Source: a virus (lineage: Duplodnaviria; Caudoviricetes). From it: 52,571 nt of DNA. Each line of letters begins with the position of its first letter. Positions within the stretch are counted from its first letter, which is position 1. Made by a program: the position numbers and the translations under genes. Of this stretch, positions 27 through 16,590 are shown one piece after another. Below the pieces are notes generated by a model. That model saw only the letters and a program-made list of their open reading frames with translations, did no database searches and was not told the origin of the DNA. The stretch covers positions 1-52,571 of the IMG/VR virus record IMGVR_UViG_3300050133_000102; one strand, given 5' to 3'.

Positions 27-411
27 TTATTGCCCCTCCTTATTAAATTTTTCCATAACCTCTTTGTTTAGTTTTTCCCGCAGCTTTTCAGTATTTTCAG
101 TATAGGTAACCGACGCACGCAGAAACTCATCACAAAACCCGCCGACGTCGCTGCCTATGACGTCAAGAACCTGCTTGCCATCCGCAGCTTGTTTCAAACA
201 AATCCACTAAGTCCGTAAATATCGTCAGGTCACCGTCAGGACCAACGCCATTAATAAGCATATAATGTTTAATTTTGCGAAGCACAAACCGATAATCTTT
301 CGGCAGGGCGTCAACCCGCTTCATAAATTGCTTATAGTTCCGTCTTATTTCCATGTTGCCTTCCGTGTCGCCTATTATCAATTTTATGAATTTTTTGATA
401 GCGTCAAGCAT
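27..411 (-). pseudogene. DUF1048-family protein, frameshifted
   Basis: ORF 411-163 reads ...RVDALPKDYRFV...DLVDLFETS then stops. A shifted frame continues AADGKQVLDVIGSDVGGFCDEFL...NKEGQ* to 27, the expected C-terminal half. Lies downstream of padR. Confidence 0.75.
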
Positions 412-412
412 T

Positions 413-745
413 TTACCGCTCCTCCTTTAATTGGGTGATTTTCAACGCGACAAATTCCCATTTTTCCCAGGACCTCCGCAGTTCCTCACGCCCCGCGTCG
501 TTGAGCGCGAAAAACTTTCGTGGCGGCCCCATGTCGGAGGGCTTTTTGGTGATCTCTACTAACTTGCTTTTTTCAAGCCGGATCAGGATGGTGTACACCG
601 TTCCCTCCACAACATCTGTGAAGCCGAGGGCGTTCAGCCGCCGCGTGATTTCGTAGCCGTAGGTTTCTTTGCGGCTTATAATTTCAAGGACGCAGCCCTC
701 AAGCACGCCTTTGAGCATTTCCGTTAGGTTTTCCAGCACAATCAC
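413..745 (-). CDS. padR: PadR-family transcriptional regulator
   Basis: LKGVLEGCVLEII...TYGYEI...EGTVYTILIRLEK...GPPRKFF winged-helix signature. Confidence 0.93.
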   Translation of the reverse strand: MIVLENLTEMLKGVLEGCVLEIISRKETYGYEITRRLNALGFTDVVEGTVYTILIRLEKSKLVEITKKPSDMGPPRKFFALNDAGREELRRSWEKWEFVALKITQLKEER

Positions 746-949
746 CCCTTGCTATTCTGTATGGCTGATATTCTGTATCACTTACTACCGCTATATAGTA
801 ACACATAGTAGCTGGCTTGTCAATGGCGATTGTTCTGATAATGAATTTCAACTAAAACGCAAAATGCTAACCAGACCAGCTAAGCAAAGTCAATCATTTT
901 TAAAAAAAAGATAGCAATGGGCGCCGCCCCCGGGCTTGTGACAAATGAA

Positions 950-1043
950 ATTGCACACCCCATTGCACACCCTCCCAATCTTTTAACGGCTTAGCCGTTG
1001 ATGGCGGCAAAAACAGATAGGGTTCAAGTCCTGTCTTTCCCCA
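950..1043. other. Possible attachment-site remnant (arm-like direct repeats plus degenerate tRNA 3'-end-like sequence)
   Basis: ATTGCACACCC at 950-960 and 962-972; palindrome AACGGC-tta-GCCGTT at 985-999; GGGTTCAAGTCC...CCA at 1020-1043. Confidence 0.3.
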
Positions 1044-1350
1044 AATGACTCCAGAGAAACCACTTATAAATGATAAAAGCCATTCCGCGAAACCGCTGGA
1101 ATGGCTTAAATACTGGGCTTTTGAGCAAATTAAAAACCACCTATCGACAGAATTTCTTCTATCAATAGATGGTAGTTAATATGAAAGTAAAGACCAATTT
1201 TGATACCAAATGCACACGGACGCTACCTTTCGTTAAAAGGTTCAGGAATAATTAAAAGATGCACCCCTATTTCAAGCTGGCTCTATGAAGTTCCAAACTT
1301 TGATACAAAGAAAAAAGCCCTCTCCAGTCATAAAAGGCTGAAAAAGGCTT

Positions 1351-1400
1351 AAAATAAAGGCTTCCGTGGTCAATTGCTGACTTCGGAAGTCCTGTTTTTC
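1351..1400 (-). terminator. Probable intrinsic (possibly bidirectional) terminator closing the leftward defence operon
   Basis: Stem GGCTTCCG (1359-1366) / CGGAAGTC (1384-1391) with an A-rich left flank and a T-rich right flank. Confidence 0.5.
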
Positions 1401-1588
1401 TTTATGCAGTTGTGTGATTTGCCGCCGTGGTTGAAGGGCAACTTACCCTCCTTTGGTAGCTGAAAGGCAATAATTAAAATGTACGGTAAAATTAAAAAGT
1501 TCACATGGCATAGAAGTAATCGGACCATTCCATGTGACTCTTCCTTTCGATGTTCGTAGTATCTTGATTATCACAGTAGAGTGCTGGA

Positions 1589-2119
1589 TTAATTACTTTC
1601 TTTTAGGACTATCGGATATACGGTGCTATTGAGCACAACAGATAGATGCCCATCCTCGGCTTCCAGTTTAATAGAGGCAAAATCACCATTGTAATCGTTA
1701 ATATTGCAAGCACACTCATAATCTATTGGTTCGCTTTCTGCCATCGTATCCGCCGCAATCTTACTTCTAAATAGCGCAAAATGAGCTCTTGTAACATAGT
1801 TCGTTATACAGCAGAGGCAATAAACCATGTTTTTATATATAGTAGCTGCTATGGCATAGGCACCATCGGATGCGTGTATAATTTTGCTTTCCAATGTATC
1901 CCATACAAATACCAACCCGCCTTGTCCGCTCGCCGTAAGCAAGAAGCCAACGATACAATCATCGATGACTTTCGCTGATCCACCTTCGAAATCACCTGCT
2001 GTTGCATATGACCAATACGGCAGCAGAGCAGAAAACGGGATGAAGTATTGCGCATTTTCTTTGATATACTCCAGAAAGATGTCTTTGTCCGCCACGAACT
2101 TCAAATGTTCAATACTCAT
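1589..2119 (-). CDS. Hypothetical protein (176 aa, beta-rich looking)
   Basis: ORF with GGAG RBS, 16 bp downstream of the desulfurase; no recognised motif. Confidence 0.7.
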   Translation of the reverse strand: MSIEHLKFVADKDIFLEYIKENAQYFIPFSALLPYWSYATAGDFEGGSAKVIDDCIVGFLLTASGQGGLVFVWDTLESKIIHASDGAYAIAATIYKNMVYCLCCITNYVTRAHFALFRSKIAADTMAESEPIDYECACNINDYNGDFASIKLEAEDGHLSVVLNSTVYPIVLKESN

Positions 2120-2135
2120 ATCCAGTCTCCAACTT

Positions 2136-3266
2136 CTATCGAATTATTTTAACCAGCGCTTCTGCAATGGAATCAACATCATCCGATGTATTGCTTTTTC
2201 CAAGTGAAATGCGAATTGTTCCCTTAGCAAGTTTCTCATCGAGATTGATAGCTTGAAGAACATGAGAAATATCCGTGTTTACACTATTACAAGCCGAACC
2301 GGTAGATATGCAGATTCCCATTAAGTCCATACGGTGAAGAATTGCTTCCCCATCCGCTCCGCCAAATGAAAGGCTTACGAATCCAGGCAGTGTTTTTTCA
2401 CCGCCATTGCGAACAAACGGAATATTCGACGCACAAAGAACCTTCAGCAACTGGTGTTCCAATGCTCGTGTGTGGACTATGTTGTCGCTGATGGCGGCAC
2501 AGTTATCTTTTAATGCGGTCGCCATTCCTACAATTGATGCAATGTTTTCTGTTCCCGCGCGATATTGGCTTTCCTGCGCACCCCCATCGGCATAGGACAT
2601 GATTTTCGTACCCTTGTGTATGTACAAAAAGCCGATTCCTTTGGGTCCATTGAATTTATGAGCCGATGCCGAAAGCATATCTACACCAAGCTTCTGAACA
2701 TCAATTTCGACGTGACCGACAGCTTGCACCGCATCTGTATGAAATAGCGCACCATGAGAGTGAGCCACATCGCAGAGTTCCTTAATCGGCTGTATAGTCC
2801 CAATCTCGTTATTGGCATACATAACAGACACGAGACGTGTCGTATTCGAAATCATCCCAATGAGTGCCTCGACTGTTATAATGCCATCCGCAGTCGGCAT
2901 AAGGTAGGCTACTGGATATCCAAGCCGTTCTACGGCTGCACAGGAATGTAGGAGCGCATGATGCTCAAATGCTGATGTAATCATTGCTCTCTTGTCAGTG
3001 TCAGCAAAAGCCGAGCCCTTTATGGCCCAGTTATCGCTTTCTGTTCCGCCGGAAGTGAAGAAAATCTCCTCTGGCATAGCATTGATGCTTTCGGCAATAC
3101 CTTCTCTCGCGTCAGAGAGGGCTTTCTTCGGCTTTCTTGCAAATGAGTATGGCTGTGAAGCATTGCCATACTCATCAAGTAGCCACGGCATCATTGCATC
3201 AAAAGCGGCTTTATTCAATTGTGTCGTTGCCGCATTATCGGCATAGATTAGCTGCTTCATACTCAT
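2136..3266 (-). CDS. iscS: Cysteine desulfurase (IscS/NifS class; DndA/SspA-equivalent)
   Basis: IYADNAATT, FTSGGTESDN, HTDAVQA, SAHKFNGPKGIG (PLP lysine), STGSAC (catalytic Cys). Confidence 0.95.
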   Translation of the reverse strand: MSMKQLIYADNAATTQLNKAAFDAMMPWLLDEYGNASQPYSFARKPKKALSDAREGIAESINAMPEEIFFTSGGTESDNWAIKGSAFADTDKRAMITSAFEHHALLHSCAAVERLGYPVAYLMPTADGIITVEALIGMISNTTRLVSVMYANNEIGTIQPIKELCDVAHSHGALFHTDAVQAVGHVEIDVQKLGVDMLSASAHKFNGPKGIGFLYIHKGTKIMSYADGGAQESQYRAGTENIASIVGMATALKDNCAAISDNIVHTRALEHQLLKVLCASNIPFVRNGGEKTLPGFVSLSFGGADGEAILHRMDLMGICISTGSACNSVNTDISHVLQAINLDEKLAKGTIRISLGKSNTSDDVDSIAEALVKIIR

Positions 3267-4834
3267 TATTCCTTATACTGCACATCTGGTATTGTGCTTT
3301 TCCCGGGAACATCAAATTCCTTGGGATCAACGATGCACAGTTGCCTTTTAATTATTGCTCGCATTTCCTTTGCAGGGTTTAAGCAATATTTGATAAACTC
3401 ATCTGGCGCAATGTCTTCTTTGTGTTGGGCATTCGGGTATAATAGCTTAACAAAGGCGGTACAAAGCCTTTTTATTGCCGTCATATCACGCGTATCTGCC
3501 TTTGGAGGCACATCGATACAGGCATCGACGAGCGCTGCATATGAAAGCTCGTCGCGCATAGCGTGGAGAACCTCTGCAAAGTATTCGGTATTAATTGCCC
3601 ATCCGTTTGCAATCAAGTCTTGATTTAAGCGGGGAATTTTCCATCCGGGGATAAAGCCGTGAAATCTATCCAGAGTGGCAGATTCGCCAAAGACCTCGCT
3701 GATGTTTTCAACCATGTTCTGATTGATGTCAAATTTACCGGCGTCAATATTTCCAAGGACGATTACACCAGCATCCGTAGCCATCTGTGCGTCAAAGCCC
3801 TTTATCTCGCCAAACTCCATATAGTGTTTCAGCGCCTGCTGGATTTGCCCCGGCTGATCAAAAGTAATCGACTGTACTTCATCAAATCCGACATAATCGA
3901 ATCTGGTTAAAAGACCGCCTACTTTTTTCGCATTGTCATAAATCAACGTTGCGCGGGAAACCGTGCCGCCACTAATCAGCCAACCGCGTTTACTGATTTT
4001 TTCGTATATATAGCTCTTTCCCGTTCCTTTAGGTGCAAGTTCGATGAGATTGATTCTTTTCTCTACAAAAGGTAACAACCTTCTTAGGAAGAACAGCTTC
4101 GGTTCCTCACTAATTTCACCCGTTTCTGAGTCGACATATCCTGCTGGGTTATAGTCCACAGCAGAAATGATTACATCAATCCATTCGTGAATATCAAAGT
4201 TTTTCCTCGCTTCTTTATAAAAATTGAGGTCAACTCTGTATGGGCAAAACGGTTTGTACCCGCTTAGGTATATTTCGTTGGGCTTGTAACTGGGTTTGTC
4301 GTCCTCTTCCTCATTATGCTTAGACGATTTCCCGAACAGCTTATCATAGAATTTTGTCGGAGCGTGAGAGCCGTTATTAAAGTCGTCATCAAGGCTAAGC
4401 GTGCTTCCGAGGGCTAATTCAATGATTCCCCAGTTCTCGCTTTCTTTCAGCAACACATCGGCATATTGCTCTAATACTTCATCTGAGACTATGCCGGAAG
4501 CGCCGCCACGGGCACCTCCGAAATCTGGGAGTTCAAATTGAACGACGCTTTTTTTCAAGTTCACTTCCAGACGCACTCGGGCAAGCAGCTTTTCTGTGCT
4601 GCCCTGCATAAGACGGTATTTAATCACCTGATATGCATCTCGGTCGGGAATGAACTTTTTGATATAAGATAGCGTTCCATCATAGTCAATGTTCCCCTGA
4701 TTGTCAGAGAACTTCATTACAAGCCAATCACGCATATATGAAGGCAGACTCAGATTAGAAAAGAACTCAGACCGTTTAGGCTCTTTGAGAACAACCATAT
4801 CCGAGAATACCTGTTTTACTTTTTCTTCAAGCAT
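3266..4834 (-). CDS. brxL: BrxL-like AAA+/MCM-type ATPase, no Lon protease domain (522 aa)
   Basis: RRLLPFVE-RINLIELAPKGTGKS (Walker A), VGFDEVQ (Walker B), LDRFHGFIPGWKIPR, DTRD; start placed at ATG 4834 after AAGGAGG. Confidence 0.85.
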   Translation of the reverse strand: MLEEKVKQVFSDMVVLKEPKRSEFFSNLSLPSYMRDWLVMKFSDNQGNIDYDGTLSYIKKFIPDRDAYQVIKYRLMQGSTEKLLARVRLEVNLKKSVVQFELPDFGGARGGASGIVSDEVLEQYADVLLKESENWGIIELALGSTLSLDDDFNNGSHAPTKFYDKLFGKSSKHNEEEDDKPSYKPNEIYLSGYKPFCPYRVDLNFYKEARKNFDIHEWIDVIISAVDYNPAGYVDSETGEISEEPKLFFLRRLLPFVEKRINLIELAPKGTGKSYIYEKISKRGWLISGGTVSRATLIYDNAKKVGGLLTRFDYVGFDEVQSITFDQPGQIQQALKHYMEFGEIKGFDAQMATDAGVIVLGNIDAGKFDINQNMVENISEVFGESATLDRFHGFIPGWKIPRLNQDLIANGWAINTEYFAEVLHAMRDELSYAALVDACIDVPPKADTRDMTAIKRLCTAFVKLLYPNAQHKEDIAPDEFIKYCLNPAKEMRAIIKRQLCIVDPKEFDVPGKSTIPDVQYKE

Positions 4835-4847
4835 TTTGCTACCTCCT

Positions 4848-5051
4848 TCAGATAAATAATGTACACCCTTGCTCTTTAAATTCATCAATTTTGATTTTCA
4901 AGTCTGCAACGTCGCAGCTGAATGACTCGCTCATACATTCCAGACATTGAAACTTCTGAACATCAGGTGAGATCAATTTCTTATTGAGCGCAACTTCGTC
5001 CTTTGTCAACAGCCTGCCGCAGTCTCGACATTTTTTAGCTTGTGGTTTCAT
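4848..5051 (-). CDS. Small zinc-finger protein (CxxC...CxxC, C-terminal GCxLF)
   Basis: CRDC...DEVALNKKL...FQCLEC...EFKEQGCTLF; GGAG RBS; fills the gap between pglZ and brxL. Confidence 0.8.
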   Translation of the reverse strand: MKPQAKKCRDCGRLLTKDEVALNKKLISPDVQKFQCLECMSESFSCDVADLKIKIDEFKEQGCTLFI

Positions 5052-5059
5052 AATAGCTC

Positions 5060-7408
5060 CTATAAATCGTCATCGACAACCAGCCCTTTTCTTTTCACAT
5101 GAATGGTTTCCGTCTCAGCTGTGAAGATGTTGTTCAAATATATGCGAACAGAGTAGCTTTGGTCGAGACTAAGTCCTGAAATAAGGACGTTCCAATTGTC
5201 TCCCTCTGTTGCATGAGCCTGTAATTGATTACCGTTAATTTCTACCGTTACGCTCTTTACCGAGCCTTTGGCTGTGATGGTTAAAACAGCGTCGCCATTA
5301 CCATCAAGATGAACTTCCGATGACGCCAAATCATATGAAAAATTAACACTGGCTTTTACTTTTTTCTGACCAAGCTTCTTGAAGTGTATAATTGGAACCA
5401 GAATTTCTTCTGGCGAAGCACCTCCATGTAATTCTCCGGGCGCATTACCAGAAATCGTAAAATGGTTATGCGTTTTAAACGCTATGACGGCTCCTTCTTT
5501 TACGGTATTTGTTATCGATGGCATCTTGCTATCTGATGGCATTTCACAATATCGTCCGAGGTTGTATACGGTTGCCGACGATGGCGAGTTAATTCCCTCT
5601 GTTTTATGAAAGCCTTTTGCTGCCATTCTGCTCATGCCGTGGTCTGCGGTAACAACAATATCTTTGTCGGGATGTTTTGCAGCTGCTTGGCAGATAATAT
5701 CAGCAATCTTGTCCATCATTTCAAACTGTTTCGCTATTATTGAATCATAATTGCAATCGCTTTTATCCTTGATGTGACTCAGTGAATCCAAGGCATCAAA
5801 CTTCTTTTCCGAAATAGTGGCAGGGTCGGCTTTTTCCATATTAACAGGCGTTACTGTTGGTAGCACGGCCGTTCCGATATCGACAAATGGATTCACCAAC
5901 GCTGAATTTTGCCGCTTTACCTTGGCAAGTAACATGTCTATCCACTCAATTCCCATGCCATCTATCCACAGGAAGTACGCATCACCTGACCCTTTTAGTG
6001 AAAACAGGATTTGACCCCTTGTTTTGTAATCATAGGGGTTAATTTCGCCTGCCATGTTTGAAAACGAAAGGCTGAAGCGGTCTGCAACCTTGTTAATCTT
6101 ATACTGAGAAATATATTCGGACAGTTCTGTCTCCAGATGTTCCGGCTCGGATAAATAGAGCACAAGGTCTGGATATTTTTCTTTAAGGATTGTCTTAAAA
6201 TCGCTGGGTTGCTTTCCTTCTGATAATGACTGTGACAGCAACTCGATTATTTTTGTCCGTTCATCATGCGTTTTCCCTGTAAGAATTTTTATTTTAATTC
6301 TGGCATCTGATAAACAATCATATCTCGCCCAGAATTCTTGGCTCAATTCATCGATGTCGAGGGAGTTAAGGGCGTCTTTTCTCTGCTCAAGCCATTCATC
6401 AAAATTTGTATTATCAGTGCAACTTAGGATAGCGCACTCAAGAGAGAGGGGGACTGTGTCAGCAGTGCTTGCCTTGGATAAAGCAAACGAAATATAATCA
6501 CTCTTTTGATTAAGCCCAAGCGTATACCACAGGTAAAAAAGCCATTTTTTGCTTGAATCGAATGTGTTCCAATTGCTGAGAATTTGATATGGATCGAATG
6601 TTACACGGTTAAGTGCTCTCGTTACAAGGCTTTCAAGCGTTCCATTAGCAGTTGGAACACACGGAACAAGAGATGTCCACTGTTCATCAGTGCCCAACTC
6701 TTTTATTAACTTTGCGTTGTTCTCCTTGAGAGAACTGCAAATATATGAAAATGGGTCGGTAACAATAGAAAGAGCATAATCACCGCTGGACTGCGACAAC
6801 TGCTTTATTTGTCGGGTCGCAAATGACATGCCCGACTTTATTTTTTTGTCATCCCATAGCTGCAACCACGATTTCAGCCCGTTCGCATTGACAATTCCGG
6901 GTTGGCTTGCGAACGCTTTTGAGTATGCCAGTGCGGAAAAGTCCGAGGGTGCCTCATCAATTTCAAAAAGAGCGTTTCCAAACCGTTCCTCATCCAATGT
7001 TCCCACAATTAATTGGAATAATCCCTTGGCGGCAAAAATGGGTATCCAGACTCTTTTCTTTGAATGCACATGCCGGTTCAGAATGGAGTACAGGCATGCA
7101 GAGTTCCGCTCGGTGACTTCACCGACACGCAAGTATTCTCCAAGGTGTGGGAGAAGTATATTGTTGTCCTTATGCTGATCCAAGTAATCGATGAGTGCTT
7201 TTAAGTCAGGTACGGTATCTTCGCCTTTGCAGAACATATCATCAGAAAGACGAACAACAATGTCCGCCTTGTCAGACAAGGCAGCTATCAGTGTATAGTA
7301 TGTCTTCAAGTTATTCACGAAGAACACACGCGCAACAAGCCGACTTTCTGCGTTATCGGTCGCTATTCCAGTCATCAGTTCTGGTAATGAAATCTGTTTT
7401 ATTAACAC
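5060..7408 (-). CDS. pglZ: BREX (type 4) PglZ alkaline-phosphatase-superfamily protein
   Basis: WIDGMGIEW, LPTVT, VVTADHG, HGGASPEEILVP motifs; GTG start with AAGGAGG. Confidence 0.9.
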   Translation of the reverse strand: MLIKQISLPELMTGIATDNAESRLVARVFFVNNLKTYYTLIAALSDKADIVVRLSDDMFCKGEDTVPDLKALIDYLDQHKDNNILLPHLGEYLRVGEVTERNSACLYSILNRHVHSKKRVWIPIFAAKGLFQLIVGTLDEERFGNALFEIDEAPSDFSALAYSKAFASQPGIVNANGLKSWLQLWDDKKIKSGMSFATRQIKQLSQSSGDYALSIVTDPFSYICSSLKENNAKLIKELGTDEQWTSLVPCVPTANGTLESLVTRALNRVTFDPYQILSNWNTFDSSKKWLFYLWYTLGLNQKSDYISFALSKASTADTVPLSLECAILSCTDNTNFDEWLEQRKDALNSLDIDELSQEFWARYDCLSDARIKIKILTGKTHDERTKIIELLSQSLSEGKQPSDFKTILKEKYPDLVLYLSEPEHLETELSEYISQYKINKVADRFSLSFSNMAGEINPYDYKTRGQILFSLKGSGDAYFLWIDGMGIEWIDMLLAKVKRQNSALVNPFVDIGTAVLPTVTPVNMEKADPATISEKKFDALDSLSHIKDKSDCNYDSIIAKQFEMMDKIADIICQAAAKHPDKDIVVTADHGMSRMAAKGFHKTEGINSPSSATVYNLGRYCEMPSDSKMPSITNTVKEGAVIAFKTHNHFTISGNAPGELHGGASPEEILVPIIHFKKLGQKKVKASVNFSYDLASSEVHLDGNGDAVLTITAKGSVKSVTVEINGNQLQAHATEGDNWNVLISGLSLDQSYSVRIYLNNIFTAETETIHVKRKGLVVDDDL

Positions 7409-7428
7409 GGATATGCCTCCTTCCGCTA

Positions 7429-10400
7429 TTAGTCCTCATCAAGAAGGAACAGACAAGCTTCTGCACTCGAATCAAGTAGCTTAATCAGTTTAGCTCTCAA
7501 CTGTTCTTCTGTCATTTTTGCTGCCTTTTTCTTGGCATTACCACTCACTTCGTCTCTAAGCCCTATCGTGATGAATTGCTCGGTGATTTTTCTAATGGCA
7601 ACAACAGAGTTATTCCACGATGAATAATCCCTGTATCCGCTGTCCTGAATCTTTATTTTGAGCTCATCAATATGCGGTAAAAGGAGATTATAGTATTTCT
7701 CCGATGCAACATTTACGATGAAACATCTGTCGATTTCATTTTTATCCTTCAAAACGGCAAAATCTGTTTCTGTGATAGAACTCAAAGCATTTTCCAATCG
7801 AATGGAATCAATTCGCTCGTTGCGACTGAGCGCAGAAACCACAGAGAAAATAAATGTGCAATTGGGCATTACCCAAGCAACGGGCATCATGTATGTTTGC
7901 GCCCATTCTGCAACGCCTGCTGTGTCTGTCTTTGCCAGCCAAATGGCAAGCAGAGAATTCGCCTGCTTTGTGTATGCTAAATCGTTGATTTTATTGAGGA
8001 TTGCGGTCTTGAAACTGTGTTCTGTTTGGGAGTATGGCTCTTTCTGCAACGCTTTAAGGATATCGCTGCATTCTGCGTCTGAAAATGTGCCCATCCCATT
8101 TTTTGCGATATACGCTTTCAAAACATTCATTGGATGTGAGATATTTTCAATGGCATCCTTTGTGTACAGCTCCAATTCGCTGATGATTGCGGCCTTTTCT
8201 TCGCTCGAATATCCAATCCACTTGCCACTTGCGATATTATGTAAAGTAGCAACAGTCTTTGCCCAGTTATCAGGAAGACCGGCATACACGCAGCCCGGGA
8301 CACGAATATAGTCCAGATAATTCGACAGGGTTTCTTTGATTTTTTCTACGGATTCTGCCGTTCCATTAAGGGCAGAATTCACTACACCTACGAGCGTAAG
8401 GTCGATAGTCAGTTTTGCTGTTGCTTCAGCAACCTCACTTTCGCGCCATTGCCACTTTTCTTCTTCAAGAGCTTTGCTGAGCATGTTGAACAGCGTGTCT
8501 ATCGAGAAATTATATTTTTTACAGGCATTCTCTGCATCTGGAGCGGTTTTAAAAACAAAATTTTTCATGCCATTGGCGAGTTTTGACCTACCTTTAAACA
8601 GACCCGTAAATAGAGGCACGTACGCTTTTGCGCTAACTTTTACAAGGCTGACTATGTCTTCCATGACGGCTGTTTGGCTGCCAATCTCCAGAATGTATTC
8701 AACGTACTTATCCACGATTTCGCAGATTTCTGTTTTTATACCCGCGTAATCCATATCCTCAAGATATTTTAAAGCCCAGAATGGATAGCCGTTCTTTGTA
8801 ATGTGGATTTTTACATTTTTGCGGCAATCGTAAACGTCACCAATTTCTTCTGGGGTAAGTGCGAAAATTCTCCGTGTGATGTCTTTGAAGCGTTTCTCAA
8901 TATCGCTTTCGCTGGAGAGTTTCATGCCAGCGGATTTGCCGGAGAGCATGCTGACGACCATCGTCGGAATCGTATCTTCATCCAGCTTGTGCGCATTGTT
9001 GCCGTCATACCATGTAAATTTTCCAACATAGAAATGGAATGCAAAACCGAGAAGGTAGCAACACACACTGGTATCGTAGTAACCGAGTTTCTGCTGCATA
9101 TCGTCCCACAGGTCGGTGAGCAGCAATGTGCCGGAAGTTAATGCCTTATTGAGATATGTACACAACGAAGCCATGCTGCGACCGACCTTCGTTTCGGTCA
9201 TAGCCATGATATCTTCAATGGTTCCACAATCCCAGACGTTTTCATCATTATCGCGGAGAACATCAACGCAGTCCTGCCACTGCTGATTGAAATTCTTTTG
9301 CTTGTCATTTGCTGCGCTCTTGGTTTCAAGGGTGGTCTTAGACACACCATAGTAAGCCGGTGCCATAGCCGGTGACTTATAAAGCGTAATTTTACGAATG
9401 ATATTTTCAGGTGCCGCAGGGAAAAACCTGAAAACAATCTTTTCATAATTCGAGATAACATTTTTGTTTGTATAAACGTGCGCAGGCGTATCTCCATATA
9501 GAAGGTCCATATCTTTGCCAATAGCAGTGCTGACCCAGTTGCCGACAAGGTCAACAGCCTGAGTCTGATAGGAGTTCGCATTTACGGTATTTCCGGCTCT
9601 TTGTGCGAGGGAACCGTTGGCAACCAGCTCATACCAGCTCTGGAATATTTCCTCTGGCAAAGGATATCTCATCACGGTAACAAGAACACGATGTGTTTCA
9701 TCGTCCGCAATTAATCCAGAAATGGTCGTTTTAATCTTATCGCTTTCTTCGACAGATGGTACTGCCACAATCAGTAAGCCGAACTTATGGTGCGTTTTTT
9801 CTACGGCTTTTTTCAACTCCCCGAATTTGAAGTTGAGTTGCTGCGTTGTTCCCCAACAGGTATCAATAATCAGGCGCTTGACAACAGCTTTTTCATCCGG
9901 TACGAATTGCTTTTTTAGAATTGAGCCGAAACAAGAGTCCGTACCGAGCAGTTTTGCGGGTGAATTGTCCTTTTTGACTTTTTCAATTTCTGCATCAAGC
10001 TCTCCACCGGTGCTGGAATACGGAAGCTCGATTCTCGAACCCTCATGGAGGTCGGGTGCCAAAACAAGAACATTCAGAGGATCGGAGCTGAGCGAATGCA
10101 GGTAGCTTTTCACTGAATCCTTGTCCATTATGCCGGAAAAACAGTCGCAGAGGGTTTTCTCAGTTACTTGGATTCCCTTGCTGCCTCTGGTTTTCTTCAA
10201 GCTATGCCCTGTACCAATGGTGGCAAGCAATAGCATTGCAGCTTTAAAAACGCGAAGCGCACGGTCGTCGCTGATGAGATTTTTAACCTTGCTGTAGTGC
10301 TTGAGAGCATCCTCGGCGGTTTTAGTCAGGTCTTTTTTACCGCCAAGATTGTTTACGAAGAAGTAATCCCACAAGTAGTCAGGGGTTACCCATTTCCAGT

Positions 10401-11655
10401 CATACTGTCCATTGTTATGAATATAAGCACGGAAACCGTCCTCACCGCTACTCTTTAAGAATTCAAAAATACTTCTGTTGGACGCGGCAAGTCCAGCGAC
10501 CATAGAAACAAGATTAACCGTCATCGGGTGGATGGGGAATATTTTCTTAAGCGTGTTAGCATCCATGTCAGAGTCAGGGTCACCCATGTATGAATGCACA
10601 CTACCGCTAATAGATGAATAGAGGTCTTCGCAAATATCCTCCCAGTTGCCCTTCATCCCGTCTTTGGTGATGATGCTCTCACCGATAAGTTTGAAAGTCG
10701 TTTTTTTGCTTAAGGACACATCAATCTTATGGAAGCGGGCATCGGCTTTTCCGAGAGAGCCATTCACACTCTCGGAAAACAGGCCGGGATACTCGTGCAT
10801 AACATAAATAATAAAGAACGGCAGCTCTTTGGAGAAGATAGATAATTGCTGTATTATGTCGAGGTCATTATTCCGAATATACTCGGTAAACTCATCCCAG
10901 ATAATAAATATCCCTGATTTCGATAATTCCTCATTACCTGAGTAGACATCTTTTAGCCACGCTTTGAATGTTTCGAGGTCGGTTGCCAGACCGATGTTCA
11001 TCGACTGCAGGATTTCCTGGGCGCTGGAACAAGCCGTAATATCACCATCTTGGACAGCGTCATAGAAACTGTCAAACGTATCATATGTGCTCCAATGTTC
11101 AGGATACTCGCCGTTTTCAAAATCCTGTACCAGCTTCGGTCGAAAGTCCTTAACAGTGCTACGAACCGAGTCGACCAGAGAATTTCGACCTGTATAAGAG
11201 AAACCATTCTCTTTCAGAATATCCCGAACTGACTGTTCGATCTGAAAAAGGAATTTGTTGGAGGTATTAAGCTGCTTGCTTTCACCGCTGCGGAACTTCA
11301 CATAATAGCGAGCTTTTTTCCGGGCGGCGAGAAACTTGTCCTTCACATCGAGGAACAGCTTATTCTTATTCAAAAAGTTTTCCACGATGCCGTAGTCATC
11401 CTGCAGAAAGTGCTTAATGACAATAGCAGAGTAGGTCTTACCTGTACCATAAGAGCCCTTAATCCAGTAATGCCACACATCTTCGTTGGGGTCATCGGGG
11501 CGCAGGGAGCTGGCAAGCAGTTTTACTGCGGTCACCATGTCGTCATTAACAATATAGCGACTCCAGAAATCCGCATTTCTGCTATCGGAGCTGATATCTA
11601 CCACAGACTCATATCCGGGCGTCAATTCTATGAAGGAATCATATTTGTTTGCCAT
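7429..11655 (-). CDS. brxC: Large P-loop ATPase, BrxC/PglY/SspC family (1408 aa)
   Basis: GSYGTGKT Walker A, IIWDEF Walker B, FPIHP, SNRSIFEF; lies between brxP and pglZ; start placed at ATG 11655. Confidence 0.82.
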   Translation of the reverse strand: MANKYDSFIELTPGYESVVDISSDSRNADFWSRYIVNDDMVTAVKLLASSLRPDDPNEDVWHYWIKGSYGTGKTYSAIVIKHFLQDDYGIVENFLNKNKLFLDVKDKFLAARKKARYYVKFRSGESKQLNTSNKFLFQIEQSVRDILKENGFSYTGRNSLVDSVRSTVKDFRPKLVQDFENGEYPEHWSTYDTFDSFYDAVQDGDITACSSAQEILQSMNIGLATDLETFKAWLKDVYSGNEELSKSGIFIIWDEFTEYIRNNDLDIIQQLSIFSKELPFFIIYVMHEYPGLFSESVNGSLGKADARFHKIDVSLSKKTTFKLIGESIITKDGMKGNWEDICEDLYSSISGSVHSYMGDPDSDMDANTLKKIFPIHPMTVNLVSMVAGLAASNRSIFEFLKSSGEDGFRAYIHNNGQYDWKWVTPDYLWDYFFVNNLGGKKDLTKTAEDALKHYSKVKNLISDDRALRVFKAAMLLLATIGTGHSLKKTRGSKGIQVTEKTLCDCFSGIMDKDSVKSYLHSLSSDPLNVLVLAPDLHEGSRIELPYSSTGGELDAEIEKVKKDNSPAKLLGTDSCFGSILKKQFVPDEKAVVKRLIIDTCWGTTQQLNFKFGELKKAVEKTHHKFGLLIVAVPSVEESDKIKTTISGLIADDETHRVLVTVMRYPLPEEIFQSWYELVANGSLAQRAGNTVNANSYQTQAVDLVGNWVSTAIGKDMDLLYGDTPAHVYTNKNVISNYEKIVFRFFPAAPENIIRKITLYKSPAMAPAYYGVSKTTLETKSAANDKQKNFNQQWQDCVDVLRDNDENVWDCGTIEDIMAMTETKVGRSMASLCTYLNKALTSGTLLLTDLWDDMQQKLGYYDTSVCCYLLGFAFHFYVGKFTWYDGNNAHKLDEDTIPTMVVSMLSGKSAGMKLSSESDIEKRFKDITRRIFALTPEEIGDVYDCRKNVKIHITKNGYPFWALKYLEDMDYAGIKTEICEIVDKYVEYILEIGSQTAVMEDIVSLVKVSAKAYVPLFTGLFKGRSKLANGMKNFVFKTAPDAENACKKYNFSIDTLFNMLSKALEEEKWQWRESEVAEATAKLTIDLTLVGVVNSALNGTAESVEKIKETLSNYLDYIRVPGCVYAGLPDNWAKTVATLHNIASGKWIGYSSEEKAAIISELELYTKDAIENISHPMNVLKAYIAKNGMGTFSDAECSDILKALQKEPYSQTEHSFKTAILNKINDLAYTKQANSLLAIWLAKTDTAGVAEWAQTYMMPVAWVMPNCTFIFSVVSALSRNERIDSIRLENALSSITETDFAVLKDKNEIDRCFIVNVASEKYYNLLLPHIDELKIKIQDSGYRDYSSWNNSVVAIRKITEQFITIGLRDEVSGNAKKKAAKMTEEQLRAKLIKLLDSSAEACLFLLDED

Positions 11656-11656
11656 T

Positions 11657-14011
11657 TCAATTACCCCCCAGTACGATATTAACGACATCCAGTGAGTTCT
11701 TCTCGCTATTCAGTGTTATATTATCGAGGTCAGCAACAAATGCGATTTTGATGAAATCGGGATAGTCATTTGCAAGCTGACGTACCATCTCCTTGAACGC
11801 GTCCTCGTCCAAAGCAAAAATCGTGACAGGGTCCATACCGACGAAATTCTCCGGGCGGTTGTCGCGGATGTTCTTTAGCTCCTTCAGCGTAATGTTAAAG
11901 TGTCCGCCAAGCTTCTCCGCGTATCGATACATCGCATAGAGGATGGCAGTGCCATCAGGCGTAGACCAGCCTTTTTTTGTGAAGCGATATGAGTTGCCAC
12001 TCGGAATCGGTACGCCCATTTCTAATGTCGAACCTATAGGGCTATTAACAAAGGTTTCGGCCAATGAAGTAATGGCATTATTCCGTGTAGAAGCGGAATA
12101 AATATCATCAATCATTTCCACAAGCTCCGCCTTTGTGTAGGTTTCATCATTTGGCACATTAAGCAGATACCATTTTACCAGCGTGGAATTATAAGCTAAA
12201 TTAGTCCATATCACAGCCCATGTAAATGGGTGAAATGGGCCTATTTCTATCAATTTTTCACCAAGAGCGGTAATTTGACCATTCTTTCCATTTGATGTGC
12301 CAACTTCGATTACTTCGCTCTCTTTTAGATAGACCTTAAGCGCATCATATTGGCGATTGCCGTATTCCTTCGAACTCCAGCAATCGTTACCTTGCTCGAA
12401 GAAATGTTCAAGCCAAGCTCCCCTTAATCCAAAGTGTTGATACCTATTCATACCCTTAAGGTCCATGTTGCTACCTCCTTGTGTTGTGGACAATGAACGT
12501 GCTACTTTGCATCCTTTTGCAACTTCCGTGATACATTTTCCACAATGAACACATTTTTCGCTTATTATTGAGATTTTTCGATTTTCATCTATGGTAAACG
12601 CCCCTGTCGGACATTCCACAGAACAACTATTGCAGCCAATACAATAGGCGGCCTTATTTGCTAAACCACGTAACCAACTTATGGTGAATCTGTCCATACT
12701 GCTGAAGCCGGAATATGTTACCGTTGAATTATCTTCACCTACTTCAAAATTGTAGGTTTTATCCTTAATAATCTGTTTCCCGGAGTTTTGATTACGTTCG
12801 ACAATTGGACCTATTATTCTTCCGACCTCTATCCAAGGCTGTCTAATTTCACTAAAGACAAATTGCAAGGTATCATCTTGAATTATCTCGTGTACGCGGT
12901 TACCTCCATTTTTTAATCCGCGTCCTCCGAACCGACCTTTCCAACCACCTTGGGCAACGTACTTTTTTACTTCTTTTTCAGGCTTGTTATCGGCAGCATA
13001 TTCTTCAACTCGTGCCAAGAATGGTGCCAAATCATCTTTATATGCGATATTTGCAATTCCATCCCACCAAGCTGATGACATTGGACACACAGCACAACCG
13101 ACTCGGAATAGGCCTAATCTGTATGCATTATTGAACAGAATATCACGCTCCAAGATATACAAATATATCTCAGATGTACTCCATTTCAAAATGGGGCTGC
13201 AATTAATCTGATTAATATGTTTCTTTCCTTCGGACAATTCTGTATAGGTTGAACGCTGCTCACTTTCTTCGGCACGAACGCCATCAAAAACCACGGCTTT
13301 GATATTTTCGCCTTCGGATATTTTTTGCAAAAGTACAAGTGTCGGCACTGATTTGTGTACACCGCAGCACCAGCGAAGTCTTCTCCCCGGAGGACCGAAT
13401 TCGCTCCACGATTCCTTCGCGTCAAACTCCGATTTTGCGGTTTGAAAATTTAGATTCGGATAATGTTTTTTTGCTTTTTCGACCGCTTGGTATGTATCGC
13501 GAAGTTCCATCCCCGTATCTCCAAAGACCACAAGGAATTGGTCTGGTACCAAGGCTCTTTGAACGATATCAAGAATAACAATGGAATCTTTGCCACCGCT
13601 ATATGCAGCAACAAACTTATAGCCCTTTGTAGCATATTCATCGTATGTTGCTCGAATAAATTGAACAGTTCTTTGTACAAGCCCCTCCATGATGGAAGCA
13701 TTTGTTTTTATAAGCTTATCAACATCAATCGGCTCCAACTTTTTAATTTCGGTGTTCTTAATTACGATTTTCGGCTTTTCATAAAAGCTGCCGCCCTTGG
13801 CTTCCGCAATCACCTCGCCGTTTAACACATATTTCCGAATACCCTCTGCCCACAGTAGCGGCGCTTTGGTATCGGGATATTCCCAGACCTTATACATTTC
13901 GAAGAAGTCCAGTTCTTCCTTGAAAACAGGTCTTATTTCTTTTTGAACGGTTACGGAAACATCGAGCTTGAAAATGCCGTTTTCTCCGTCCACCCATCTA
14001 TATCCATACAT
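11657..14011 (-). CDS. brxP: BrxP: PAPS-reductase (DndC/SspD-like) domain + ferredoxin-type Fe-S domain + C-terminal DUF4007-like domain
   Basis: SGGKDS PP-loop, RWCC, GVRAEESEQR, RVGCAVCP; CIGCNSCSVECP and CVHCGKC; C-terminal ~270 aa winged-helix-like region. Confidence 0.85.
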   Translation of the reverse strand: MYGYRWVDGENGIFKLDVSVTVQKEIRPVFKEELDFFEMYKVWEYPDTKAPLLWAEGIRKYVLNGEVIAEAKGGSFYEKPKIVIKNTEIKKLEPIDVDKLIKTNASIMEGLVQRTVQFIRATYDEYATKGYKFVAAYSGGKDSIVILDIVQRALVPDQFLVVFGDTGMELRDTYQAVEKAKKHYPNLNFQTAKSEFDAKESWSEFGPPGRRLRWCCGVHKSVPTLVLLQKISEGENIKAVVFDGVRAEESEQRSTYTELSEGKKHINQINCSPILKWSTSEIYLYILERDILFNNAYRLGLFRVGCAVCPMSSAWWDGIANIAYKDDLAPFLARVEEYAADNKPEKEVKKYVAQGGWKGRFGGRGLKNGGNRVHEIIQDDTLQFVFSEIRQPWIEVGRIIGPIVERNQNSGKQIIKDKTYNFEVGEDNSTVTYSGFSSMDRFTISWLRGLANKAAYCIGCNSCSVECPTGAFTIDENRKISIISEKCVHCGKCITEVAKGCKVARSLSTTQGGSNMDLKGMNRYQHFGLRGAWLEHFFEQGNDCWSSKEYGNRQYDALKVYLKESEVIEVGTSNGKNGQITALGEKLIEIGPFHPFTWAVIWTNLAYNSTLVKWYLLNVPNDETYTKAELVEMIDDIYSASTRNNAITSLAETFVNSPIGSTLEMGVPIPSGNSYRFTKKGWSTPDGTAILYAMYRYAEKLGGHFNITLKELKNIRDNRPENFVGMDPVTIFALDEDAFKEMVRQLANDYPDFIKIAFVADLDNITLNSEKNSLDVVNIVLGGN

Positions 14012-14028
14012 AAATCTGCCATCCTTTG

Positions 14029-16590
14029 TTAGTTTATAGTCACCTTACTGTTTTTCTCCGTCCAGTAAAAGCGCAAATCGCCGGCAACAGTCTTATGTAC
14101 ATTCCACATCTTTTCTGAGCCGTGAATTAATCCTTTGTCGAGCAAAAACTCTCTGAATTCTGAAGCGGTTAGTTCTTTTGGAAGCGAAAATGACTTTGAT
14201 ACTTCATTCCAGACCAAATCCGAAAATGTTCTGAATGGAGAATTCTTCTTCAGAATAGCTGCCGGAATGGTCTTTTTGTCGTTGTCATTACCTGCTTCGA
14301 CGGTAATGTATCCAATATCAAAAAGCCGTAACATGTCTTCCAGAAAAAGAGGCGACCATTGAATATTGGTCGGTACAGCCGGAAGCGTCGTGTAGAAATA
14401 GTCTGCAATTTCGCCGAAAGCGATATAGGCTTCGCCTTCAAGCAGGTTCTCTATTTGAACCCTGAGAGCGCTCAGGAAATTATCGTTCACATAAAGTGCT
14501 TCCTTCAGGGCAAAGCAGTTTTCCGCATACTGAAGGAAGGATTTACTGCCTGAGGTGAACAGAATATTTGAGAATGACTGGTCTGGTGTTGCAGAGCCGA
14601 TTGACTCAAAAAAGGTAAGTGCCTGTTCGCGGGTAAAAATATTCTGATGCTCTCGACCATACTTGATTAACAGGCCGTGAAAGTCTTTCGGATAGTTTGG
14701 CTCGTTCCTCCAGATATGCATACCATTCAGGAACAAGAAAGAATTACCTTTATAATTCTCCTGAGTAAAAAGATGCACCGCGAGGTCAAATACCTCCGGG
14801 CGCGACTCAAACGCATTGTTGTAGAAGAAGAAATCATCCAGCCGAAAATGCGCATCATTATATAGCTGCTGTGCGGATGTGTAATCGCCATTAGCGGCAA
14901 ATTGCTTTGTCAGGACATCAAGAAGAATTCCCGCCATTTCGTCATAATTGCTTATATTATCCTTGTGATAATATTTTTTAAGCGCCTTTACTGCATGACA
15001 TGCCGTCAATGCATGATTGACCTGCGGTGTACTGTAATTTGAAAAGTGCGCAAAAACATCTTTCTCTGATATTCCGTCACTACTGGCTTTCAGGAAAGCA
15101 GACAGTTCATTGGTAAGCCCTGTGGATGCAGTCTCAGTTCTTGGCTCTGCCTTTGCTTTCTCAGGGGTACTAATTGCAGGAAAATCCACTGCGTCAATTC
15201 CATCTGGATAAAGATAGCTAAAGTATTTTACCAGTTTCTGAAACGCAGCGGAAAAGCGATTATGCTGGTCTTGATTAATCTGCCTGAACCCTTCATCTGC
15301 CATTAAACAAGAGACGGTCGACAGCGCTTCTTTGCTGTCAACGCCAGAAATATTTCTGCTGGGAAGATTGTGTTCTCTTGCATGTGATTCTGCCTTGTTT
15401 AGCGCGGAAACATAGCTGCGGCACGTACCATCTGCCATTTTTTCAATGTTTTTCAGCCACTCCGAAAATGTAATATCAGAATTGTTGCCAGACGCAATAT
15501 GCGTTTCTTCCTTTGGCTGCATCTTATCATGAACCCTATCGGAAGGCTTCTTTTCTTGATATTCAATTACAACATTTTCTGAAGAAATGCCACAAATATC
15601 AAGTAATGCTGTAATCTTCTTCACTATGTCGGTGGCGCTGATATTGGTTTCGATATAATAATCATCAATGATTTGTTTCGGCGCAGTCATCCCATCGGCA
15701 GCACCAAAATCCAGCCTGCCGCTTTTGTAAAATGACTGTCCAATCGGAATGATGGCTGTATAATCCGTATAAATGCTTTTGAACAGCTTAACATACAACT
15801 CAGTCCAATTTGAAACTGATTCCTCACGAACCCCGCGATATGTGAACACTACGGGTCTTGTGTATGCGAGAGATGGCATATTCCTGAAATCGATTATCAT
15901 GTTATTGTTTGTTTCTGTGGGAGTTGCGGATGCTACTGGGATTACTTCAGTGGTTTCTTCTGCAGGGGTAATATTGGGCAAATCCATCACAAATGCGTAA
16001 TACCAGTTAGCCGCAGAGATGATATTGTTAATCTGCTTCTTGTTTTTTATCCTGAATATTTTGTTTTGGCTCACCGTTTTGGCAAAGCGCTTGATGGTGC
16101 TTTCATCTGTTGTTTCAAACAACGGGGCAGAAAGGACTTTGATTTTCAGACAAAACTCTTCTGCAACAGGCAAAAATCGGCATAGGAAATCAGGCTGGAC
16201 TTTTGGCGCTTTGACTGCCAGCCACGCACAAAACTGCTGACGAGTTTTTTCTTGAATATCACTCACGCCTTTTGCCTCCATCAATATTTTTTCGTAACCT
16301 TTGTAATCATTTTTGTACAGTTGCACCATCTGCCTGAAAAGGTCAGATGTGTTTTTCAGACCGATACCATCGTCAGAAAATAGATAATCAAGTTCACCCA
16401 GCCGCATGTTGATCCCATTTTCGTTGCGATATGTTTCGTCAATAACTACGCCTCGACTGGACGCCCGTAAGCGCAGCGCTTCAGACAGTGTGGTGAAGAC
16501 AGCCCTTCTCGACAATTTGTTTTCTTTTGTCTTCCAGTACGCTTCAATAAGAAGGGCTGCTTCGTACTGATCCCATTTTGGCTGTCGCAC
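14029..16590 (-). CDS. Large multi-domain hypothetical protein (853 aa), probably DNA-binding, defence-associated
   Basis: Long ORF with GTG start and AAGGTG RBS; two internal helical repeats (FxxWL...SAA..Y/L..F); no catalytic motif recognised. Confidence 0.7.
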   Translation of the reverse strand: MRQPKWDQYEAALLIEAYWKTKENKLSRRAVFTTLSEALRLRASSRGVVIDETYRNENGINMRLGELDYLFSDDGIGLKNTSDLFRQMVQLYKNDYKGYEKILMEAKGVSDIQEKTRQQFCAWLAVKAPKVQPDFLCRFLPVAEEFCLKIKVLSAPLFETTDESTIKRFAKTVSQNKIFRIKNKKQINNIISAANWYYAFVMDLPNITPAEETTEVIPVASATPTETNNNMIIDFRNMPSLAYTRPVVFTYRGVREESVSNWTELYVKLFKSIYTDYTAIIPIGQSFYKSGRLDFGAADGMTAPKQIIDDYYIETNISATDIVKKITALLDICGISSENVVIEYQEKKPSDRVHDKMQPKEETHIASGNNSDITFSEWLKNIEKMADGTCRSYVSALNKAESHAREHNLPSRNISGVDSKEALSTVSCLMADEGFRQINQDQHNRFSAAFQKLVKYFSYLYPDGIDAVDFPAISTPEKAKAEPRTETASTGLTNELSAFLKASSDGISEKDVFAHFSNYSTPQVNHALTACHAVKALKKYYHKDNISNYDEMAGILLDVLTKQFAANGDYTSAQQLYNDAHFRLDDFFFYNNAFESRPEVFDLAVHLFTQENYKGNSFLFLNGMHIWRNEPNYPKDFHGLLIKYGREHQNIFTREQALTFFESIGSATPDQSFSNILFTSGSKSFLQYAENCFALKEALYVNDNFLSALRVQIENLLEGEAYIAFGEIADYFYTTLPAVPTNIQWSPLFLEDMLRLFDIGYITVEAGNDNDKKTIPAAILKKNSPFRTFSDLVWNEVSKSFSLPKELTASEFREFLLDKGLIHGSEKMWNVHKTVAGDLRFYWTEKNSKVTIN

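Follow-up and report, generated by a model that had tools for sequence, protein, structure and literature searches.

The closest described relative of the locus analysed here is the type 4 BREX system brxPCZL of Bacteroides salyersiae (PMC12914056). It has no PglX, and its BrxP, a fusion of a PAPS-reductase domain with DUF4007, is effectively a fusion of SspD and SspB, while its BrxC is a homologue of SspC. According to that paper, phosphorothioate DNA is made by brxP and brxC, brxZ and brxL are dispensable for modification in B. salyersiae, and the anti-phage activity of its variant systems awaits investigation. A second study (PMC12839542) describes an Fe-S-rich region of BrxP, a DndA-like desulfurase as a 'sixth component', and a small zinc-finger partner; in its account, the linked desulfurase and small zinc-finger protein occur in 56% of type 4 taxa. 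Its text says nothing about phage carriage, the word 'prophage' having no occurrence. In the passages on this kind of system in the type 4 BREX literature, no restriction assay was found.

The window, that is, the whole 52,571-nt stretch of the viral record IMGVR_UViG_3300050133_000102, carries at 2136–14011 on the minus strand genes for a cysteine desulfurase, BrxL, a 67-aa zinc ribbon, PglZ, BrxC, and BrxP (Table 1). The four core genes are the same as those of B. salyersiae, but several features differ from the published description (PMC12914056). The cassette encodes its own desulfurase, whereas the published reconstruction used the host SufS; it is without mcrA and has an upstream gene, orf853, and an XRE regulator; and it lies in a phage setting, on a Bacillota-like background, in peat-labelled runs. 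Taken as a whole, the best explanation, which we hold with a probability of roughly three in four, is that this is a BREX type 4 unit with its own sulfur donor, situated on the leftward 'defence arm' (BREX unit plus ABC-3C system) of a temperate, Heliusvirales-like siphophage that has integrated next to a tRNA gene. The unit would run on the minus strand over about 1184–16870, in the order XRE regulator, orf853, brxP, brxC, pglZ, zinc ribbon, brxL, cysteine desulfurase, and orphan gene.

A first-pass annotation of the window had proposed five named genes in one operon without PglX, and all five are found on the minus strand where it had placed them. The brx and desulfurase genes overlap or are separated by gaps of at most 20 nt, an operon-like spacing, and PADLOC found no PglX among the 12 proteins of the 1–20 kb stretch. 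The sole methyltransferase of the window is the ParB-N6/N4 MTase of the phage (31581–33146). The call of BREX type 4 is borne out by PADLOC, one of the checks that had been named for it, and by agreeing Pfam and NCBIfam matches: BrxP, a BrxC/PglY ATPase, a type 4 PglZ, and BrxL are present without PglX, as is the proposed sixth component in the form of a linked cysteine desulfurase and a small zinc-finger protein. E-values for the cassette proteins range from 1e-45 to 1e-240, and chance matches are therefore excluded. The span 2136–14011 holds for the named genes but cuts the unit short by three or four genes; the unit extends upstream to orf853 and the XRE regulator and downstream to a 176-aa orphan gene. 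The core of the cassette, BREX type 4 with phosphorothioation, was already published in 2026 and nothing is added to it here; the first-pass annotation had noted this link and judged the core not new, as PMC12914056 confirms, and the same caveat extends to the cassette's own sulfur donor.

Table 1. Features of the window, with the matches on which their assignment is based.
Feature	Position	Strand	Basis and remarks
Host flank, outside the insert	1–1140		PadR 413–745; DUF1048 in two ORFs, 163–411 and 27–197
Terminator-like hairpin and left insert boundary	1136–1184	-	Hairpin 1173–1136; boundary at about 1183/1184
Terminator-like site	1316–1339	-	Follows the last gene; transcription of the unit likely ends here
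Orphan gene, 176 aa	1589–2119	-	16 nt downstream of the desulfurase gene; without family match
Cysteine desulfurase (DndA/SspA/NifS-like), 376 aa	2136–3266	-	Pfam Aminotran_5 264 bits; PADLOC SspA 418.4, DndA 418.2 bits
BrxL, 540 aa	3266–4888	-	TIGR02688 397.2 bits (cut-off 329.3); Pfam BrxL_ATPase 344, BrxL_N 78 bits
Zinc-ribbon protein, 67 aa	4848–5051	-	Between pglZ and brxL; from the translation
PglZ, type 4 kind, 782 aa	5060–7408	-	NF033445 BREX_PglZ_4 342.9 bits (cut-off 140); PADLOC PglZ 154 bits; Pfam DUF7863 59 bits
BrxC/PglY-type ATPase (SspC-like), 1419 aa	7429–11688	-	PADLOC BrxC 184 bits, SspC 72 bits
BrxP, 784 aa	11657–14011	-	PADLOC BrxP 796 bits over residues 1–780 of a 779-position profile (full length)
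orf853, uncharacterised modular protein, 853 aa	14029–16590	-	17 nt upstream of brxP
XRE/Cro-type HTH regulator, 77 aa	16637–16870	-	Upstream of orf853; Pfam HTH_26 70 bits
Separate ABC-3C (Lamassu-like) three-gene system	16890–19870	-	ATPase/DUF2326, MC7, effector with CTD11; Pfam DUF2326, AAA_23, MC7, CTD11; PADLOC LmuA, LmuB, PDC-M68
Siphophage genome	20321–52545	+	Early/replication genes, terminase, portal, capsid, tail, GH25 endolysin (PHROGs, Pfam)

The predicted catalytic motifs of the cassette enzymes are intact. BrxP combines a PP-loop PAPS-reductase domain (Pfam PAPS_reduct, 102 bits), a ferredoxin-like stretch with two cysteine clusters (Fer4_7, 32.5 bits), and a DUF4007-like C-terminus whose Pfam score of 24.6 bits is slightly below the cut-off of 27. 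Across 10 BrxP sequences, SGGKDS at 138–143, CC at 215–216, C306xxC309, C457xxCxxCxxxC467, and C487xxCxxC493..C501 are invariant. BrxC, for which neither Pfam nor NCBIfam holds a matching model, has a Walker A motif, GSYGTGKT, at residues 78–85. BrxL is of the short form, with BrxL_N and the ATPase (Walker A APKGTGKS at 285–292) and without a Lon protease domain; its homologues align only from residue 4–19 onward, and its true start probably lies near 4834. The desulfurase has lysine 204 in a SAHK motif and cysteine 326 in a GSAC motif. A close copy of it directly follows brxL in 5/5 genomes, each of which encodes two or three more distant desulfurase paralogues besides, and in all five viral loci that reach past brxL.

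Two other phosphorothioation systems invite comparison. The first-pass annotation had proposed equivalents of all four SspABCD proteins, which fits the family matches: the cassette holds counterparts of SspA, SspC, and SspD, and of SspB in the C-terminus of BrxP. However, the Ssp models match far more weakly than the BREX ones (SspD 34 against BrxP 796 bits; SspC 72 against BrxC 184 bits), the SspB-like part is fused into BrxP instead of being a separate gene, and the genes do not amount to an SspABCD-SspE system. PADLOC gave no match to a reader-nuclease of the SspE or SspFGH type, and PglZ and BrxL occupy that place. With DndABCDE-DndFGH the cassette has in common a DndA-like desulfurase (PADLOC, 418 bits) and a PP-loop sulfurtransferase, but DndC models reach only 24–28 bits, DndD, DndE, DndF, DndG, and DndH have no PADLOC or NCBIfam match in the cassette, and a DndABCDE set is not formed. 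Among the related loci, a DndB-family gene was found only in one phage contig (L016).

The families present and the two type 4 studies (PMC12914056, PMC12839542) suggest how such a unit might work. The PLP-dependent desulfurase would mobilise the sulfur of cysteine and carry it as a persulfide on Cys326. BrxP, whose DUF4007 end resembles SspB and BrxA, would act together with the BrxC ATPase at short sequence motifs, leaving the resident DNA marked by phosphorothioates. PglZ and the short BrxL ATPase would most likely be directed at incoming DNA that lacks the marks, and regulation would probably fall to the zinc ribbon and to the XRE protein. A lysogen would thereby be protected from other phages, and the prophage DNA would itself be marked as self.

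The upstream gene orf853 has zero matches in Pfam, PADLOC, PHROGs, NCBIfam, and PDB sequences, and a PDB profile search returned 0 matches at E-values up to 10. Its family nevertheless comprises 2040 cluster representatives, and a relative lies directly upstream of brxP in 10/10 loci found via orf853 and in 11 of the 12 found via BrxP. From this position, orf853 is a predicted conserved partner of BrxP, to which hhalign found no similarity. Among 32 family members, Pfam gave a weak Phage_int_SAM_1 match in three and Mrr_cat in one, and in one relative an Mrr-type nuclease replaces the C-terminal module. In the ESM Atlas, orf853 lies near HARE-HTH clusters at 0.84–0.93, which we treat as a lead only. 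We guess that orf853 has a DNA-binding or DNA-reading role in restriction or in control. The type 4 BREX section of PMC12839542 does not name a large protein upstream of brxP, although its supplementary tables may list the gene, and an orf853-like gene likewise goes unnamed in the passages of PMC12914056 on brxPCZL. Before orf853 stands the XRE regulator, homologues of which are found at the same place in L005 (57%), L007 (30%), and MT835511.1 (59%), with an HTH_17 gene taking this position in L002 and L016. The 77-aa HTH protein was considered as a phage repressor and rejected, since its homologues accompany the cassette even where a locus has no phage genes.

The left end of the low-depth insert is placed at about 1184. 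Contig depth in four runs is 12–112x, with many variants, in the flank at 1–1140, and 3–11x from about 1143 onward; long clean arm contigs begin at 1143 (run X1) and 1154 (run X2). In the hairpin at 1173–1136, a T run follows a stem of 17 pairs. In runs X3 and X13, a contig departs from the window behind 1183 into what is a putative tRNA 3' end, in reverse complement. This tRNA reading of the loose end is our own and draws on 28 letters in two runs and a 22-letter variant in a third; no complete tRNA was found in the window. The PadR gene of the flank has at least 531 relatives at 79–94% amino acid identity in metagenome contigs, and in the 80 loci kept from these PadR-seeded matches (at least 531) the shared flank ends at about 874. 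A 30-nt flank pattern, used for an empty integration site, had no match in metagenome contigs.

The prophage location proposed by the first-pass annotation is supported by the phage genes, by this contig boundary, and by related records, which together fall short of proof of phage carriage; the phage setting itself is likely real. The right end of the element and its integrase would fall outside the window. One contig of X1, a run that may be the source sample, starts at 9419 and crosses the arm–phage junction at 20 kb, and in two other runs 96% and 88% of the words sampled from 15001–25000 are present. The replication module is 72–75% identical to four Ca. Heliusvirales records over 6–32% of a 25 kb query, a likeness at the nucleotide level only. 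All three of the related Ca. Heliusvirales records examined for it have a leftward arm of 20–24 kb adjoining the early genes, with an ABC-3C/Lamassu-like system beside these genes and RM systems farther out. Three IMG/VR contigs whose DNA polymerase (77–78%), exonuclease (76–80%), and SSB (82–83%) are close to those of the window have that arm slot occupied by a type 4 cassette other than the one described here, and a close relative of the present cassette lies on a contig whose phage-like backbone is a different one. In the window as in its relatives, the GC content of the arm is 8–12 points below that of the phage backbone. Large serine recombinases are located at the far end of the relatives, after the late genes, and the arm would therefore fall inside the element. 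PV036449.1, a related 'complete genome' record, has no terminal overlap or repeat. A permuted-circle reading of another contig (G010) was rejected, BrxL being absent at its far end.

The same evidence can be turned towards another reading, which we regard as unlikely: that the 19-kb arm, as a genomic island in its own right or the decayed remains of a mobile element, is lodged between the prophage and the tRNA site and is neither excised nor packaged with the phage. Its GC content (0.43 in the BREX unit and 0.40 in the ABC-3C system, against 0.51–0.52 in the phage) would suit an island, as would the occurrence of the cassette in non-phage settings, namely nine cellular loci without phage genes, one of which includes a relaxase. 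One related viral contig (G006) has an arm that continues into an RM system, a relaxase/NikA gene, and a tyrosine integrase, which makes mosaic or tandem elements possible; the window itself contains no integrase, right-hand or second att site, or terminal repeat, and IMG/VR labels the related records as linear or provirus. Against an island, the arm has no mobility genes of its own (no integrase, relaxase, or transposase was found in 1184–20300), and there is no second copy of the boundary sequence anywhere in the window, the arm–phage junction included. The divergent arrangement of arm and early genes recurs, moreover, in the three Heliusvirales records, the three IMG/VR contigs, and the one other phage-like backbone, and the serine recombinases past the late genes of the relatives would place the arm within the element.

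Granting a phage-borne unit, its beneficiary might be the phage instead of the cell: sulfur marks on prophage or progeny DNA would evade restriction in related lysogens or similar hosts, and cell defence would be secondary. The phage setting agrees with this, as does the report that modification requires just brxP, brxC, and a desulfurase (PMC12914056), but pglZ, brxL, and orf853 are intact in all related phage-borne copies that extend that far, which is unexpected for a marking-only module, and the neighbouring slot is a defence system where relatives hold RM systems; we consider this account quite improbable. Least credible of all, in our judgement, is that the desulfurase and the PAPS-reductase-like gene are auxiliary metabolic genes for sulfur metabolism or Fe-S/tRNA thiolation and have no part in DNA marking. 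Sulfur metabolism is a common class of auxiliary genes in Heliusvirales (PMC11283538), and in NCBIfam the desulfurase scores highest with NifS (436 bits, cut-off 530.75), ahead of DndA (321 bits), both below the equivalog cut-offs. Against this, both genes sit inside the brx operon in an order conserved across loci, and BrxP matches its own model at full length while cysH-type models reach at most 68 bits.

Variable slots of temperate phages holding interchangeable defence systems are known from the hotspots of P2/P4-type prophages and satellites (PMC9122126). The slot described here differs from the hotspots treated in that work in phage lineage and host phylum, and in being an arm of 19–24 kb with two or more large systems, including a BREX type 4 unit of 14–15 kb. 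That unit, presumably self-sufficient for marking and restriction, seems to be carried by a temperate phage whose relatives keep ordinary RM systems in the same slot, which raises the questions of whether prophages are a vehicle for backbone-sulfur epigenetics and whether the phage's own DNA is already marked on leaving the cell. We tentatively put forward a broader claim, possible but on present evidence still doubtful: nearly all BREX type 4 systems would have an unrecognised component in the orf853 family, whose members, modular and DNA-binding, would serve as readers or control proteins and couple sulfur marks to the PglZ/BrxL response, and temperate phages of the Heliusvirales kind would exchange sulfur-marking BREX cassettes as wholes, in an arm set aside for defence. 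If such exchange is real, some of the reported 'sulfur metabolism auxiliary genes' would be DNA-marking defence cargo. As a large protein without a known family that precedes brxP in nearly every type 4 locus examined, orf853 is a candidate for knock-out in studies of BREX type 4 restriction.

In genome loci the order orf853-brxP-brxC-pglZ-zinc ribbon-brxL is kept as far as each locus reaches, and BrxP-seeded relatives from gut records are only 29–32% identical. The 176-aa orphan gene had no match in Pfam, PADLOC, PHROGs, or NCBIfam, and none by tblastn against the related loci; it has a single other homologue among 5.8 billion clusters. The 67-aa CxxC...CxxC gene between pglZ and brxL, absent from the first-pass annotation, is present in 7 of the 8 genome loci that extend past pglZ, and its residues C8, C11, C36, C39, C46, and C63 are invariant in 12/12 aligned copies.

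ORF calls place a closely packed row of minus-strand genes in the first 20 kb of the window. Assignment with three libraries, Pfam, PADLOC and NCBIfam, recovered for this row the BREX type 4 gene set proposed in the first-pass annotation, and the absence of PglX that had also been claimed held among the 12 proteins scanned, none of which matched it. The catalytic motifs are in place: BrxP carries SGGKDS and two ferredoxin-like cysteine clusters, with motif residues unchanged across 10 BrxP sequences, the desulfurase has both its PLP lysine and its active cysteine, and a Walker A motif is found in BrxC and in BrxL. These assignments and motifs confirm the earlier observation: the BREX type 4 system at positions 2136-14011 is real and intact, has its own sulfur donor and is of a kind already known.

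Features of the window, with the supporting matches, and the modules of orf853
Feature	Position	Strand	Remarks
DUF1048 and PadR	27-745	-	precede the BREX row
DUF1048	27-411	-	broken into two overlapping ORFs
tRNA-like fragment	1019-1044	+	resembles T-arm and 3' end
Terminator-like hairpin	1136-1173		17-pair stem
176-aa gene	1589-2119	-	BREX row; orphan, one homologue
Cysteine desulfurase	2136-3266	-	PADLOC SspA 418 bits, DndA 418 bits
BrxL	3266-4888	-	PADLOC 580 bits; NCBIfam TIGR02688 397.2 bits (cut-off 329.3)
67-aa CxxC...CxxC protein (Zn ribbon)	4848-5051	-	BREX row
PglZ	5060-7408	-	NCBIfam BREX-4 PglZ 342.9 bits (cut-off 140); PADLOC 154 bits
BrxC	7429-11688	-	PADLOC 184 bits
BrxP	11657-14011	-	PADLOC 796 bits, full length
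orf853 (853 aa)	14029-16590	-	BREX row
orf853 module 1	residues 1-200
orf853 module 2	residues about 230-345		duplicated in one relative
orf853 module 3	residues about 370-460		weakly resembles integrase SAM-like DNA-binding domain (3/32 members, best E 1.3e-4)
orf853 module 4	residues about 480-853		replaced by Mrr-type nuclease in one relative
XRE-type HTH (77 aa)	16637-16870	-	BREX row
ABC-3C (Lamassu-like) system, three genes	16890-19870	-	end of row; complete
Lone minus-strand gene	33509-34570	-	patch of GC 0.37
Repeat in tape-measure gene	45391-45642	+	two tandem 126-nt units, 74% alike

The sulfur donor that had been singled out as self-contained is correctly described, but has already been published. 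In the portions of PMC12914056 consulted, brxP, brxC and a cellular desulfurase are enough to produce phosphorothioate DNA in Bacteroides, which needs neither brxZ nor brxL. Those of PMC12839542 report a desulfurase and a small zinc-finger protein linked to the system in 56% of type 4 taxa, and describe the extra Fe-S region of BrxP. The modest additions made here are that a temperate phage likely carries the cassette in its defence arm, and that brxP has a conserved partner gene directly upstream, the unnamed orf853.

The cassette is conserved and reaches beyond the interval of the first-pass annotation. Scanning species-representative genomes with an orf853 alignment led to 10 loci, which come from Clostridia, Christensenellales, Lachnospiraceae, Eubacterium, Desulfosporosinus and Synergistales. 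A relative of orf853 immediately precedes brxP in all 10, and the downstream order brxP-brxC-pglZ-Zn ribbon-brxL is kept as far as each locus extends, with the zinc ribbon present in 7 of the 8 that continue past pglZ. Since these loci were found via orf853, they do not measure how often BrxP is accompanied by it, and an independent count was seeded with BrxP. An orf853 relative was found in all eight IMG/VR loci with upstream DNA, several of them near-copies of each other (a ninth begins inside brxP), and in the one GenBank phage-collection record examined, MT835511.1, whose BrxP is 32% identical. Among 399 sampled genomes of the class, three more encode a full-length BrxP; two of these also have an orf853 relative, and the miss is a 4.9-kb contig. 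Overall, 11 of the 12 loci carry one, and they represent about six distinct lineages. Conversely, a search of the 399 genomes with the orf853 profile matched four: three are BrxP genomes in which the match adjoins brxP, and the fourth match lies at a contig edge. The best match to the desulfurase (56-69% identity) directly follows brxL in 5/5 genomes, which harbor 2-3 more distant paralogues elsewhere, and the placement is the same in all five viral loci extending past brxL; the desulfurase is a dedicated copy. The record MT835511.1 (locus L126), labelled 'Bacteriophage sp.', is unannotated and derives from human faeces. It carries a full type 4 unit at 12923-27529 in the order HTH, orf853 relative, brxP, brxC, pglZ, brxL, Zn ribbon, desulfurase. 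In this unit the zinc ribbon comes after brxL; in the window it comes before.

The orf853 protein has no family match in four libraries and no sequence match in the PDB. Its family is large, counting 2040 representatives with E at most 0.001 and 685 with E at most 1e-30, and has modules that appear in many architectures. Pairwise comparison delimits four modules in orf853. A language-model look-up pointed to HARE-HTH clusters (scores 0.84-0.93), which is a lead only. For HARE-HTH domains fused to nucleases, a modification-discriminating role in Dnd systems is proposed in the part of PMC10853773 consulted. A role of orf853 in DNA reading or control may be guessed at.

Window positions 1-20000 were compared with contigs of four runs that carry peat or permafrost labels. 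Up to about 1140 the depth is 12-112x and variants are numerous, beyond it the depth is a flat 3-11x, long clean contigs begin at 1143 and 1154, and in two runs a contig departs from the window behind 1183. Together with the hairpin, these observations argue for 1-1140 as host flank and for one insert running from about 1184 to past the window end. We read the sequence beyond 1183 in the departing contigs as a tRNA 3' end, whose acceptor by eye, and not from a tool, looks like tRNA-Gly. No mobility gene was found between 1184 and the early genes, and the boundary sequence occurs only once in the window. No complete tRNA was called anywhere in the window, and the tRNA-like fragment in the flank may be the remnant of an older integration. 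At DUF1048, two extra letters follow position 186 in the aligned contigs of all four runs, so the frameshift may reflect a variant or an assembly error in IMGVR_UViG_3300050133_000102.

From 20.3 to 52.5 kb, the window encodes exonuclease, SSB, DNA polymerase, primase-helicase, terminase, portal, capsid, tail, tape measure and endolysin, and its replication module shares 72-75% identity with four records labelled Ca. Heliusvirales. No integrase was found in the window; relatives carry large serine recombinases 3' of the late genes, by which the window's integrase would lie just past its right end. In 3/3 related Heliusvirales records, a leftward arm of 20-24 kb abuts the early genes, with an ABC-3C/Lamassu-like system nearest to these genes and RM systems of type I, II, IIG or III beyond. 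The window's own ABC-3C system, between the BREX unit and the early genes, consists of a DUF2326-containing ATPase, the middle component MC7 and an effector that combines CTD11 with an LmuA-like N-terminus; other ABC-3C/Lamassu-like variants occupy the same place in related phage records. On three IMG/VR contigs of a phage closely related to that of the window, the leftward arm holds a distant type 4 cassette (BrxC only 28-29% identical). A close relative of the window's cassette lies behind an ABC-3C of another subtype on a contig whose phage-like backbone is different. On one of the three (L016), a DndB-family gene (PF14072, 142 bits; 5787-7061, minus strand) adjoining an HTH_17 gene lies between the early genes and the cassette.

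We consider the arm, the low-GC leftward stretch of about 1184-20000, to be prophage cargo, with a probability of about 0.7. Its GC content 8-12 points below that of the phage, the occurrence of the cassette without phage genes in 9 cellular loci, and one related contig that runs on into a relaxase and a tyrosine integrase count against cargo and would fit a separate island adjacent to the prophage, which we regard as unlikely. On that contig (G006, locus L024), beyond the BREX cassette and near the relaxase and tyrosine integrase, a 1040-aa protein (L024 8921-12043, plus strand) matches PF05183, a eukaryote-type RNA-dependent RNA polymerase family, at 54.5 bits.

A literature search, judged by its listing, turned up nothing on phage-borne type 4 BREX, and 'prophage' is absent from the text of PMC12839542 and of PMC12914056. 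In the portion of the Heliusvirales paper PMC11283538 consulted, neither 'BREX' nor 'phosphorothioat' occurs, and sulfur metabolism ranks next in frequency among the auxiliary gene classes, behind the metabolism of cysteine and methionine. A near full-length BrxP is present in 2 of 50,697 GenBank phage-collection records, both unannotated.

Within the phage part of the window, the lone minus-strand gene is flanked by the phage methyltransferase and the small terminase. Its 116 homologues, most of them 309 aa long, come from Clostridium, Sedimentibacter, Paenibacillus and others. Three of the 116 match PF13643, which we take to be DUF4145, and the gene looks like a moron, perhaps defence-related.
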